Source: Pirellulales bacterium
GTDB taxonomy: Bacteria; Planctomycetota; Planctomycetia; Pirellulales; UBA1268
Reading direction: 5' to 3'
NCBI GenBank assembly: GCA_051006595.1
Contig: JBPCTA010000030.1
Coordinates: 1-24,341, forward strand
DNA length: 24,341 bases
The notes below the pieces were generated by a model. That model saw only the letters and a list, made by a program, of their open reading frames with translations. It was not told the origin of the DNA and made no database searches. This document shows positions 2,831-16,035 of this stretch, piece by piece (position 1 is the stretch's first letter; each line of letters starts with the position of its first letter). The position numbers were made by a program, and so were the translations under genes.

Positions 2831-2903
2831 GCACCCGTAGCTCAATGGATAGAGCATCGGTCTTCGGAACCGAGGGTTGCAGGTTCGAGTCCTGCCGGGT
2901 GTA
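2831..2903 (+). tRNA. tRNA-Arg (anticodon UCG), CCA not encoded
   Basis: Acceptor stem GCACCCG/CGGGTGT with discriminator A; D arm AGCTCAATGGATAGAGCA; anticodon arm TCGGT-CT TCG GA-ACCGA (anticodon 2864-2866); T arm GCAGG-TTCGAGT-CCTGC. Confidence 0.97.
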
Positions 2904-2991: not shown

Positions 2992-3146
2992 TCGGCACCG
3001 GCCGGGCGGCCCTGTCGCGATGCTGAGTGACGTGTGCGAGATGGGGGCCGCCGTGCTCTGGCGGCTCGAGGATCTCGAAATCGCCTGACTGTTCAGACCG
3101 AGTCAGGCGGTCGCAGTCCTCACCTCGTAGGGCGGTAGCGTTTCTC

Positions 3147-3186
3147 TTGCCCGCCACGCCCAGTCGGACTAAACTAAGTCTAGTTT
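3147..3186 (+). promoter_or_regulatory. TA operon promoter with overlapping palindromic operator
   Basis: TTGCCC (3147-3152), 17-bp spacer, TAAACT (3170-3175). The -10 is overlapped by AAACTA-agtc-TAGTTT (3171-3186) and GACT-aaacta-AGTC (3167-3180). Confidence 0.7.
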
Positions 3187-3230
3187 ATTTGGAGTTGGGA
3201 ACTCGGATCAAAGCCCCACGAGGTTTCTCC

Positions 3231-3473
3231 ATGGCCACCGTGATCAACATCCATCAGGCGAAGACCCACCTCTCGAGGATCGTCGATGAAGCGGCGGCCG
3301 GCCAGGAAGTGATCATCGCCAAGGCAGGCCGCAAGGTGGCGAGGCTGGTGCCGATTGACTCGAAGCCGCGACCCAAGCGGTTTGGCGGGCTCAAAGGGCG
3401 GGTCAAAGTGCCGGACGACTTCAACGCACCTCTCGACGCCGCCGTGATCGCCACCTTCGAGGGCCGATCGTGA
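3231..3473 (+). CDS. Phd/YefM family antitoxin
   Basis: MATVINIHQAKTHLSRIVDEAAAGQEVIIAKAGRKVARLVP is a typical Phd/YefM N-terminus. Its stop overlaps the GTG start of the PIN gene (GTGA). Confidence 0.93.
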   Translation: MATVINIHQAKTHLSRIVDEAAAGQEVIIAKAGRKVARLVPIDSKPRPKRFGGLKGRVKVPDDFNAPLDAAVIATFEGRS

Positions 3474-3891: not shown

Positions 3892-3921
3892 GCCCGCGGC
3901 CTTACGGCCGGGCGGCTTTCA
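3892..3921 (-). repeat. REP-like hairpin family A, copy 1
   Basis: Minus strand TGAAAGCCGCCCGGCCGTAAGGCCGCGGGC; stem CGGCC-GTAA-GGCCG. Confidence 0.9.
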
Positions 3922-4302
3922 TTGGAGATCGATTGCGGCGGTGTCGTCGGCGGCGGCCTCGATGCCGCCCTCGGCGGTCAGCCTGCCCGTCGTCGCTCCG
4001 TCGGCATCGAAAAACTCGACGGCCCCTTCGCGGCCGTCAGCGCTCGTGCCGATGGCGACCGACTCGAATCCTTCGTGGTCGTTGACTTCGATCCGCCCGC
4101 CGCCGCCCCCCTTCACGCGGCCGATGTGCACGAGTTTGACCTCGCCGGAATCGTCGGAGACCACGATCTCACCGCAGAGCACGCGGTTGGCCTCGACTGT
4201 GCCAACCTCGAGACGGTCGGGAGGCACGAGCACGGCTCGGAGCGCGAGCCCGATCGAGAGCAGAAGCAGGGGATAGACGGTCCAGCGTTCGCGGCTGCTC
4301 AT
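3919..4302 (-). CDS. Hypothetical protein with N-terminal membrane anchor
   Basis: MSSRERWTVYPLLLLSIGLALRAVLVP hydrophobic segment followed by a beta-rich domain; stop-to-start spacing of a few bases from the upstream gene. Confidence 0.8.
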   Translation of the reverse strand: MSSRERWTVYPLLLLSIGLALRAVLVPPDRLEVGTVEANRVLCGEIVVSDDSGEVKLVHIGRVKGGGGGRIEVNDHEGFESVAIGTSADGREGAVEFFDADGATTGRLTAEGGIEAAADDTAAIDLQ

Positions 4303-4305
4303 GAT

Positions 4306-4935
4306 TCAGTCGCCATGTTTTTCCCGCAGCCGGGCGGAGAGCCGCAGAATGTGGTGCACCCGCTCGAACTGATCGAGCCAGTCGGATGTCACCGCGGCGA
4401 TGGCATCGGCCGGCGGTGCGACCGCGCCGGAGGCGCACGAGGATCCGAGCTGCGCCGCAGCCGACGCCCGATACGCGGAGAGCGTGCGGTCGCCGTAGAA
4501 CAGAATCGGCGTGAAATCCTCGCTGAAAAAGGCGGCGACGGGCACCCGCTGTCCGCCGCAGACCTTGAGATGGGCGGCGATGTCGGGCAGGGCGTCGCGG
4601 TCGAGGAACCGGAGGTCGATCGACGGGGCGGCTGCGGCGAAGTGGGCGAAGATCGGGCACTGGTTCACACAGTCGCCGCACCAGGCGCCGGCGAGCACGA
4701 GCACCGGCATCTTCCGCACGAAGCCGGCAAGAACCTGCCGGTGGGCCGCTGAGAGCGACACCTGCTTGTGAAACGCCTCCCAGCGGCCACGCTGGTCGGG
4801 GTTGGCATGCCGCTCGAGAAACGTGGCATAAGGGTTCGCCACAGCGAAGGCTGCGGCCCAGGCTTCCGCCGTGGGCGGCGCTCCCGCGCCGGCGATCGGA
4901 CTGGACGAGGCAGTGAGCGAGACGGTCGCGGCCAT
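4306..4935 (-). CDS. Thioredoxin-family protein (WCGDC)
   Basis: VLVLAGAWCGDCVNQCP redox motif and GGQRVPVAAF cis-Pro-like loop; ATG at 4935. Confidence 0.88.
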   Translation of the reverse strand: MAATVSLTASSSPIAGAGAPPTAEAWAAAFAVANPYATFLERHANPDQRGRWEAFHKQVSLSAAHRQVLAGFVRKMPVLVLAGAWCGDCVNQCPIFAHFAAAAPSIDLRFLDRDALPDIAAHLKVCGGQRVPVAAFFSEDFTPILFYGDRTLSAYRASAAAQLGSSCASGAVAPPADAIAAVTSDWLDQFERVHHILRLSARLREKHGD

Positions 4936-5136
4936 CAAACTGGGTCTCCGTGAAAAAGCGGTCGAAACTGCGGGGCGACTTCAAGCGGGTGCATGTAGGA
5001 GAGGAGCATACCCGTTCCTGCCCAGCCTCCCCCCTCTCCGCCAACTGGCCCGCTCTCGCTGCACGCCTGGCAGCCTGGGCGAACATGGTGAGCGCGGCAA
5101 TCACTTCCGTCGGCGAAACACGCCGCGGAACCGGCA

Positions 5137-5165
5137 TTGACCCACGAAAAACCGGCCCCTATTGT
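5137..5165 (+). promoter_or_regulatory. Sigma70-type promoter
   Basis: TTGACC (5137-5142), exactly 17 bp, TATTGT (5160-5165). Confidence 0.7.
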
Positions 5166-5172
5166 CCCCCCC

Positions 5173-5345
5173 GCCTGAAGGCCAAGGGGTTGGCTGATCG
5201 CCCGCCCCACTCGAAGTCGGCGGCGGCACGGAAGCCAACCGCCGACCTCGAGAGGGGCCTTCCGGCCATGCTCGTCCAATCGCTCCCGGAAACGGTCCAG
5301 GTTCTCCGCCCCCCTGGTACCTGGGCCGTTCCGGGGGCCTTTTTT
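5173..5345 (+). ncRNA. Candidate structured small RNA (~173 nt), family unidentified
   Basis: Lies between a good promoter and a hairpin plus U6. Contains a long hairpin at 5204-5258 and a ~20-bp hairpin at 5282-5338 whose G-U pairs only work on the + strand. No credible CDS. Confidence 0.6.
5282..5345 (+). terminator. Intrinsic terminator-like long hairpin with C-rich loop
   Basis: GCTCCCGGAAACGGTCCAGGT / ACCTGGGCCGTTCCGGGGGC, followed after one C by TTTTTT (5340-5345). Confidence 0.65.
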
Positions 5346-5402
5346 CTCGCTGCCGTTTCGACGGTTGCAGTGGGAATGGGCTCGGTGGGCCTACAATAAG
5401 GC

Positions 5403-5612
5403 ATGGCCACACCTCTTCCCCCGCCCGATGCCGAGCGGATCATCCGCTGGATCATGCTCGGGATCGTTGTCTGGGGCTGTTTTCACGCGGTCGGCGCGTG
5501 GCGTCTCAACCACGATCCGCGGCGGGTGCTAGTCGTGCTCGGATGCGTGGCCGCGTTCCTCGGCTTCTGGCTCGTGATGCTGTCTGCACGGCGGCGCCGC
5601 CTCGCGAAGTGA
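5403..5612 (+). CDS. Small two-helix membrane protein, hypothetical
   Basis: 69 aa with two hydrophobic segments and a basic C-terminus (RRRRLAK); AAGG upstream of the ATG. Confidence 0.8.
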   Translation: MATPLPPPDAERIIRWIMLGIVVWGCFHAVGAWRLNHDPRRVLVVLGCVAAFLGFWLVMLSARRRRLAK

Positions 5613-9846: not shown

Positions 9847-11235
9847 TCAATCCTCGGGCAACGGCCGGCCCTTCGTCTCCGGCAGAAACGCCAGGGCTAC
9901 GAGGCCGAGCAGGAAGATCGCGCTCATGTAGGAGCAGGCGTTGCGAAAGGCGGCCAGCTTGGCCTCCGGAGTCGTCGCGCCCGCCTTGAGGGCCGACTGC
10001 AGGGCGCCGAGCGTGAACGGCCCGGTGGCTGCCACGAACCGGCCGACGTTGTAACAAAAGCTCGTGCCCGTGCTTCGCAGGCTCGTCGGGAACAACTCCG
10101 GCAGGTAGATCGCGAAGCCGGCGAAGAGGGCCAGCTGGCAGCCCCCCATGATCGCGCTCATCCAGATATCGCCCCGGCCGTTGAACAGCTGAAAGTAGGC
10201 CACCGTGGCGGCGAGGGCCGCGACGTAGCCGATCGCAAAGGCCGCCTTGCGGCCGATCCCCTGGGCGAGCTTGGTGAACAGAAGCATGCCGATGAAGGCG
10301 CCGATGTTCTGCACGATCGAGTTGACGCCGATCCAATACTGCTGCCGGCCCGCGATCTCCTCCGCGGGCACGCCCTCCTTGATCAGCGACGTCTTGATCA
10401 CGTCGCCGACGAGCTCCGGGCTGAAGAAACCGATGCCCCACAGGCCGATCACCCCCGACACGCAGAGCACCATGCCGAGCAGGGCCGGCCCCTGCCAGCG
10501 GCGATCACCGAGCAGGGCCGCATACGACCCAAACTTCACGCCAGCCGCCTTGCCCGCCGCCCGCGCCTGCACCCACTTCTCCGGCTCCTTGAGCTGCAAC
10601 TGGATGAACACGCAGAGAAACGCGGGAATCGCACCGACGAGGAACATGTATTTCCAGCCCGTTCCCGCCACGATCGCCTTGGTCGACTCGAGATGGCCGA
10701 GATACATGCTGATGATCCCGGCCGTGATGTTGCCCACCGCCGAGAGGGCCTGGAGCAGGCCGAGGGCGCCGGTGCGGGACCGATCGGGCAGCGTGTCGGC
10801 GACAAGGGCCACCGCCAGCCCAAACACGCCCCCGACGCCCAGGCCCGTGAGGAAGCGATACGACGCGAAGTCGATCCAGCCGGTCGAGAAGGCCGAGAGT
10901 CCGGTGCAGACCGAATAGATGAGCACCGTGAGCGTGAGCATCTTCGCCCGGCCGAAGCGATCGCCGAGCGAGCCGAAAATCAGGCCGCCCATGGCCCAGC
11001 CGGCCACGAAGATGCTCGTGGCGTAGCCGCCGTAGAGCTTGGGATCCATGCCCGCCGGCAGCAGCGACTCCATCGCCTTGTTTCGGGCCAGGATGAAGAG
11101 CTGCTGATCGAGGCAGTCGAAGAGCCAGGCCAGCGAGGCCACCGTGAACACGAACCAGTGGTAGGGCGTGAGGTCGCGATACCACGGGCTGCGGTCGTCG
11201 TGGATTGCGGTGCGATGCTGCTTCGATTCGGCCAT
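9847..11235 (-). CDS. MFS transporter
   Basis: About 12 hydrophobic helices; GSLGDRFGRAK MFS motif A; YLPELFPTSLRSTGTSFCYNVGR. Confidence 0.95.
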   Translation of the reverse strand: MAESKQHRTAIHDDRSPWYRDLTPYHWFVFTVASLAWLFDCLDQQLFILARNKAMESLLPAGMDPKLYGGYATSIFVAGWAMGGLIFGSLGDRFGRAKMLTLTVLIYSVCTGLSAFSTGWIDFASYRFLTGLGVGGVFGLAVALVADTLPDRSRTGALGLLQALSAVGNITAGIISMYLGHLESTKAIVAGTGWKYMFLVGAIPAFLCVFIQLQLKEPEKWVQARAAGKAAGVKFGSYAALLGDRRWQGPALLGMVLCVSGVIGLWGIGFFSPELVGDVIKTSLIKEGVPAEEIAGRQQYWIGVNSIVQNIGAFIGMLLFTKLAQGIGRKAAFAIGYVAALAATVAYFQLFNGRGDIWMSAIMGGCQLALFAGFAIYLPELFPTSLRSTGTSFCYNVGRFVAATGPFTLGALQSALKAGATTPEAKLAAFRNACSYMSAIFLLGLVALAFLPETKGRPLPED

Positions 11236-15912: not shown

Positions 15913-16035
15913 AAAAAGGCCATGCCCGGAGGAGGTCCCTCGGCAGCATCCGTGCTGTGGGGGCCGTTCCGTCTTGTGTTTCCTGAGCGGATGAGACCGA
16001 CAGGGAAAACCGTGTCCTCCCACCCGGGCATGGCC
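15913..16035 (-). ncRNA. Candidate structured RNA (three-way junction, ~118 nt) downstream of mraZ
   Basis: Perfect 12-bp inverted repeat GGCCATGCCCGG (15918-15929 / 16024-16035), extended by GGAGG/CCTCC, encloses two internal hairpins. A5 at 15913-15917 gives a U5 tail on the - strand. Strand is uncertain. Confidence 0.55.

Follow-up and report, generated by a model that had tools for sequence, protein, structure and literature searches.

A putative small regulatory RNA with an invariant C-rich 3' module in two orders of Planctomycetia

An independent gene for a structured small RNA (sRNA) lies in an intergenic region of the window, the 24,341-nucleotide stretch of a Pirellulales contig analyzed here. 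The RNA spans approximately G5173 to U5345 on the plus strand, a length of ~173 nt, with both ends inferred in the absence of expression data. Judged by comparison of homologous sequences, it is the minimal (shortest) form of an uncatalogued modular sRNA family present in two orders of Planctomycetia. Its status as a gene, its structure, its distribution and its enrichment in a CsrA-type motif are matters of observation; base pairing with other RNAs, CsrA binding and all targets are inferred only. The interpretation preferred here, with confidence only somewhat above even, is that of a trans-acting regulatory sRNA with a C-rich loop that pairs with G-rich RNA and a 5' hairpin that binds CsrA.

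The gene is preceded by a sigma-70-type promoter on the plus strand, recognized by sequence match, with a -35 element TTGACC at 5137-5142 and a -10 element TATTGT at 5160-5165 separated by a 17-nt spacer. This is the sole promoter-like match between positions 4500 and 6000, compared with 0.1 expected. All loci of the genus carry TTGACC-N17-TAnnGT at the identical place, and 145 of 157 family loci have a TTGAC(C/G)-N16-18-TAnnnT box ahead of the RNA. A C-rich stretch, CCCCCCC (5166-5172), extends from the -10 box to the inferred start as a GC-rich discriminator, and CCCGCC-type sequence occurs downstream of the -10 box in both orders. No 5' end has been mapped, and the start at about G5173 is inferred from its spacing of 6-8 nt from the -10 box. 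The 3' end is likewise inferred, from a terminator-like U6 tract at 5340-5345. Most family members have U5-U9 at the position of this tract. Only U1-U3 is present in 10 of the 27 distinct genus loci, and one of the 27 lacks any U directly after the stem.

The surrounding ~460 nt contain no coding signal and separate a divergent Thioredoxin_9 gene on the minus strand (4306-4938) from a gene for a 69-aa membrane protein on the plus strand (5403-5612). GC3 analysis called nothing of the coding type in 4981-5399, and indels of 1-4 nt occur all along the genus alignment. Promoter and terminator are conserved, a reading frame is not, and the structure is backed by covariation, so that the locus meets the sequence-based criteria for an independent sRNA gene. 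A sequence-only reading of the region had proposed an unannotated sRNA of ~173 nt with its own terminator and a TTGACC-N17-TATTGT promoter, and comparison bears this out: promoter, helices and terminator are conserved in the genus, and the 3' half is conserved across the two orders. Farther upstream, the window contains a tRNA gene (71.6 bits; 2831-2903, plus strand) and an open reading frame with a Phd/YefM antitoxin domain (3027-3473, plus strand).

The plus-strand RNA is predicted to fold with a free energy of -103 kcal/mol (z = -5.9), a stability equaled by none of 200 dinucleotide shuffles, and the minus-strand fold is weaker (z = -3.9). Invariant U-G pairs, such as 5284-5336, would read A-C on the opposite strand; because of these pairs the RNA is assigned to the plus strand, as had already been argued from its G-U pairs. 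In alignment A3, which comprises 25 genus-level sequences, the structure proposed here forms standard pairs in 92.8% of cells, compared with 47-53% after a one-column shift of the 3' partners. Both sides change in fourteen pairs, a level of covariation reached by 0 of 500 shuffles. Structural conservation in homologous loci, a check that the sequence-only reading had itself put forward, is found as covariation in A3, in the more diverse alignment A1 and in the core of the long forms described below. On the evidence of these compensatory changes, the whole element is conserved far more than chance would allow, and covariation supports four helices of the RNA.

At the 5' end, a mini-hairpin with the arrangement GCC-UGAA-GGC occupies 5173-5182. 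Its sequence, GCCUGAAGGCC, is invariant, with 100% of cells paired in the 25 genus sequences, and hence offers no variation by which covariation could be tested; it stands where the long forms have a covarying AUCC-ACGU-GGAU hairpin. Hairpin P-b (GGGGUUGGC ... GCCCGCCCC) follows at 5186-5208. It is present in the minimum-free-energy fold and supported by covariation, with both-side changes at 6 of its 8 pairs within the genus. Fold and covariation also define the rod P-c at 5210-5252 (CUCGAAGUCGGCGG...CCGCCGACCUCGAG, capped by GGC-ACGGAA-GCC), with both-side changes at 7 of 16 pairs and pairing in 91% of cells in the genus. The cap displays the hexaloop ACGGAA (5228-5233), which together with its closing pair C5227-G5234 forms CA-N-GGA-N-G, and the same hexaloop hairpin is carried by the long forms. 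A longer version of this rod, drawn in the initial reading, survives in part: the inner rod and its GGC-ACGGAA-GCC cap are retained, whereas the outer GCCCC...GGGGC extension is not conserved, and covariation instead pairs the CCCC of that extension with an upstream GGGG in P-b. A variable linker at 5253-5275 connects P-c to the 3' part. It differs in length and sequence among loci, being missing in L169 and L177 and reaching up to ~150 nt in others. In this species the linker is able to pair back with 5173-5183, an outer pairing that is present in the minimum-free-energy fold; the partner is absent from several genus members.

The RNA ends in a long 3' hairpin, the terminator stem, at 5282-5338, with an apical C-rich loop, UCCGCCCCCCUG, at 5305-5316 and the U6 tract behind it, an arrangement that matches the hairpin first described from the sequence. 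In A1, which contains 66 diverse sequences, 85.8% of cells in this hairpin are paired, compared with 60-62% after a one-column shift of the partner. Double changes number 65 cells, compared with 30.7 in shuffles, and 0 of 500 shuffles are as high. The covariance model R1, built on the 3' domain, scores the hairpin of the window at 78.4 bits.

Two elements of this 3' module are invariant: CCAAUCGC (5276-5283), single-stranded to C5281, and GCCCCCCUGG (5308-5317) in the C-rich loop. The identity of CCAAUCGC in all Pirellulales loci arises by selection of the sample, since the same motif was used to retrieve or locate them. Constancy of the loop in this order is partly a selection effect as well, with GCCCCCCU included in the retrieval pattern. 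An independent test is provided by the second family, whose loci were found with R1. Its first element is CCAAUCGCC, CCGAUCGCC or CUCAUCGCC, and the loop sequence returns in nearly all R1 matches, with rare variants such as UCCCCCC (L190, L191). The helix that separates the two elements, in contrast, covaries freely. CsrA binding cannot be the universal core function of the family because some members, mostly short forms, lack a GGA hairpin; that core lies in the C-rich 3' module.

The RNA is single-copy in its own 3.06-Mb assembly and was detected by BLASTN in 36 of 41 related genomes. Genus members share the full length (74-98% identity); in 15 of 16 other Pirellulales families, conservation covers the 3' 72 nt. 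In a class-wide sample, R1 matched 34 of 35 Pirellulales and 26 of 35 genomes from the second Planctomycetia family (f26), with 0 of 35 and 1 of 30 in two large sister families and one marginal match in ~143 genomes from other classes of the phylum. As a rule there is one R1 match per genome.

Other Pirellulales families have longer versions of the RNA, with a promoter of the form GAAAyCG..TTGACC-N17-TATTCT, then CCCGCC, located 290-450 nt upstream of the terminator. These long forms begin with a variable leader, followed by a core laid out as in the window RNA. The core consists of the covarying 5' hairpin mentioned above, a GGUCUGCA/UGCGGACC stem and a CGAAGCG...CGCUUCG rod capped by GCA-N-GGA-N-GC; 15 of its 26 predicted pairs are compensatory, and a linker of 0-150 nt joins it to the 3' module. 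Members in f26 have their own promoter version, AAACGTATTGACC-N17-TAnnnT, and RNAs of ~115-320 nt. As a separate observation, the -35/-10 spacer of the long-form RNAs L021, L024, L025 and L031 often reads GGCGATTG(C/G)C, the complement of their own CCAAUCGC. This spacer is not present in the genus of the window, and there is no explanation for it.

A search of Rfam 15 with cmscan, the other check named at the outset, returned no family at gathering score for the window or 18 related loci. At E<=10 or E<=1, the region and the long forms gave only noise (microRNA hairpins, 6C at 19.7 bits, ar7 at 16.3 bits), and the long forms had no Rfam match at E<=1. The initial impression that the RNA has no SRP, T-box or riboswitch core and, despite a 6S-like size, does not fold as one rod is consistent with these searches and with the location of 6S and SRP RNAs at other loci. 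There is no RF00013 match to 6S RNA here; such matches occur elsewhere in five relatives (G025, G029, G033, G037 and G039), four of which also have this RNA. The likeness to 6S RNA is in size alone, without the long rod with a central bubble. SRP RNA (RF00169) was located at G000:C32:3246-3344 in this genome (G000) and also at other loci in four other genomes. The Rhodopirellula-1 motif (Weinberg 2010, PMC2864571) is a different hairpin with a different sequence, and a repeat or mobile element is ruled out by the single copy. No description of this RNA was found in full-text literature on planctomycete sRNAs or on Planctomycetes, CsrA and sRNAs.

Several traits are shared with 6C (RF01066). 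Each is a small RNA, single-copy and widely conserved, from GC-rich bacteria with no Hfq detected, and both have a terminator-proximal hairpin whose loop contains a run of at least 6 C. In addition, 6C is the only Rfam alignment over the 3' hairpin in the right orientation. Its score is, however, well below the gathering score of 47 (E = 3.4), and there is accordingly no homology to 6C. The architectures differ as well: 6C has two C-rich loops of at least 6 C, whereas this RNA has one, in the 3' hairpin, plus the single-stranded CCAAUCGC, its other loop being ACGGAA. Unlike 6C, it possesses an extra 5' domain with the GGA hexaloop, and it belongs to a different host phylum. RsaE/RoxS of Firmicutes (RF01820) use conserved C-rich single-stranded motifs to pair with G-rich ribosome-binding regions. 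By analogy, the mode of action proposed for the planctomycete RNA would resemble theirs, but the two share no sequence or model similarity, they differ in architecture and phylum, and no targets are known here.

The hexaloop of P-c belongs to the CA-N-GGA-N-G type, the form of the high-affinity CsrA/RsmE site. This motif, CANGGANG, occurs at a mean of 1.24 per family RNA, compared with 0.118 expected from flanking DNA, and is thereby ten-fold enriched. Of 161 loci, 138 have one copy or more and 53 have two or more, with none in the remaining 23 (about 13%, mostly short forms). The closing pairs of the hexaloop covary (GGCAYGGAWGCC, AGCACGGAUGCU, GACAAGGAUGUC). The number of GGA hairpins ranges from 0 to 3 in the family, and the window RNA has only one. 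The presumptive partner is ubiquitous: csrA is found in 41 of 41 relatives and in 151 of 151 genomes of the class, in 2-17 copies, with 3 matches to PF02599 in this genome. Because every class genome contains csrA, a phyletic comparison with the RNA leaves no contrast to read. FliW, a protein antagonist of CsrA, is present in 0-1 copy in five genomes. A search of the same five, four of which are single-contig assemblies and near-complete (96-99%), yielded no Hfq. Genome-wide, CANGGANG hairpins are not enriched in intergenic DNA, at 19%, equal to control motifs.

Clusters of CA-N-GGA-N-G motifs are present in intergenic DNA of G000. Clusters of 2-3 copies lie at C116:~340-400, C180:~3900-3960 and C495:~10120-10180, and more are found at C39:1430-1480, C400:~590-650 and C559:150-270. 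Several of them are tandem repeats, and one is an element with three copies, GGUCAyGGAUGACUU..CCACGGAC. Such clusters may be further CsrA-binding RNAs or leaders. Within the window, a second intergenic hairpin behind mraZ (CAGCACGGAUGCUG, 15944-15957, minus strand) has the same CsrA-type hexaloop.

In the preferred reading, the RNA would act in trans, after transcription. The exposed C-rich loop would pair with G-rich sites of target RNAs without Hfq, as do 6C in Actinobacteria and RsaE/RoxS in Firmicutes, and the CCAAUCGC stretch would probably pair with G-rich target sites too. The hexaloop hairpin of the 5' part would serve as a binding site for one CsrA paralogue out of many, in which case either CsrA might be titrated or the activity of the RNA might fall under CsrA control. 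Pairing of the C-rich loop with G-rich Shine-Dalgarno-type sites, as suggested from the sequence at the start, remains plausible, with no target signal in the scan of this genome. Complements of the loop occur at 13 other exact CCAGGGGGGC sites in the genome, all apparently inside genes. Duplex energies computed at 10,532 candidate start windows and at 3,255 internal ones had identical distributions for both elements, strong duplexes being no more frequent at candidate start codons than within genes. The scan was confined to this 67% GC genome, with gene calls from a crude GC3 finder.

A conserved protein that recognizes the two elements would account for their invariance across two orders no less well than a pairing seed would. 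The RNA could then be a protein-binding or housekeeping RNA, in which that protein, for instance an RNase or a KH protein that binds poly(C), reads CCAAUCGC and the C-rich loop and neither is used for base pairing. The freely covarying helix between two fixed short elements, the single copy in nearly all members of the group and the lack of a detectable pairing target in this genome are all consistent with this possibility. It is considered improbable, as no protein gene is conserved as a neighbor across families and no candidate partner has been identified; furthermore, the seeds of known sRNAs such as 6C and RsaE are similarly invariant. The 5' hairpin raises another possibility, that of a pure CsrA decoy of the CsrB/RsmY/RsmZ type, which would sequester CsrA via its GGA hairpins, the 3' hairpin being merely a terminator. 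RsmX/RsmY/RsmZ and CsrB/CsrC of Gammaproteobacteria are, similarly, stand-alone genes with a Rho-independent terminator, and they present A-N-GGA-N loops closed by C-G, much as C5227-ACGGAA-G5234 is presented on a covarying stem here. The exact match of the loop to CA-N-GGA-N-G, the ten-fold enrichment with two or more copies in about a third of the loci, and the many csrA paralogues set against at most one FliW also point in this direction. Known CsrA decoys, however, have 4-22 GGA hairpins, and a family range of 0-3, with a single site in this copy and none in 23 loci, is below the criterion of at least 4 for decoys of the Rsm/Csr kind. Moreover, no GGA site is found in the parts that never vary, namely the C-rich loop and CCAAUCGC. 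In the long forms, GUGGAU resides in a covarying stem and also appears as GGUU, GGGU or GGAC, and is therefore not a conserved GGA. No Rsm or Csr covariance model matches, and no family of either kind scores even at E<=1. A role as decoy alone is accordingly regarded as doubtful.

Two further explanations carry very little weight. Helix 44 of the 16S rRNA in this genome (G000:C157:94-167) contains GGGGGGC (~E. coli 1421-1427) and GCGAUUGG (~1480-1487), the exact complements of GCCCCCC and CCAAUCGC. Paired sites of this kind number only 7 in 6.1 Mb of sequence with both strands counted, this one included. If both invariant elements paired with helix 44, the RNA would act on ribosome assembly or function, a proposal that can hardly be sustained. 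The specific form in which the elements clamp both strands, so that the RNA would work in trans with the small ribosomal subunit or with the precursor of that subunit, is just as hard to credit; if true, it would be a bacterial counterpart of snoRNA-type assembly guides. The rRNA positions vary across 25 genomes (GGGGUGC, GGGGAGC, GGGGGAC, CUGAUUGG) without any change in the sRNA, the variants CUCAUCGC and CCACUUGC of the sRNA are uncompensated in the rRNA, and one genome (G046) is fully complementary, yet the RNA was not found in its family (0 of 5). Across the 25 genomes, no co-variation of the sRNA with helix 44 was detected, and there are several uncompensated mismatches; the complementarity is probably coincidence. 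The remaining explanation, that the RNA acts in cis on the 69-aa gene as its 5' leader or attenuator, was the alternative entertained in the sequence-only reading and is now disfavored. That gene, encoding a two-helix membrane protein, is on the same strand, with its ATG at 5403, 57 nt (5346-5402) past the U6 tract. Among the 27 distinct genus loci, 17 have a homologue 3' of the RNA, and the absence of a good U tract from 11 of the 27 makes read-through possible. The RNA is kept, however, without the gene in the other 10 genus loci and in all 28 loci examined from other families, and the U6 terminator of the window copy is strong. The gene also has a -10-like box of its own, TACAAT, 5 nt before the ATG (box and gene together span 5392-5612, plus strand), and a similar box (TACCAT, TAGAAT, TACGAT or TATAAC) precedes the ATG by 5-7 nt in most of ~30 aligned homologues. 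These boxes suggest that the 69-aa gene is expressed from a leaderless mRNA of its own.

The trans-acting sRNA that is preferred over these alternatives would be of interest in several respects. The two orders include cultivable laboratory species, and the family, single-copy and nearly universal in both orders, has a defined promoter and structure and presents two invariant elements open to mutation. The 173-nt form of the genus delimits the minimal functional core. A full-text literature search found no experimentally characterized regulatory RNA of Planctomycetes, and the annotated sRNA families of the entire PVC group number just 8 in a 2022 review. The family would therefore offer a handle on post-transcriptional control in bacteria that lack Hfq yet carry up to 17 CsrA paralogues, and on the question of whether sRNAs with C-rich loops of the 6C and RsaE kind arose independently in a third phylum.
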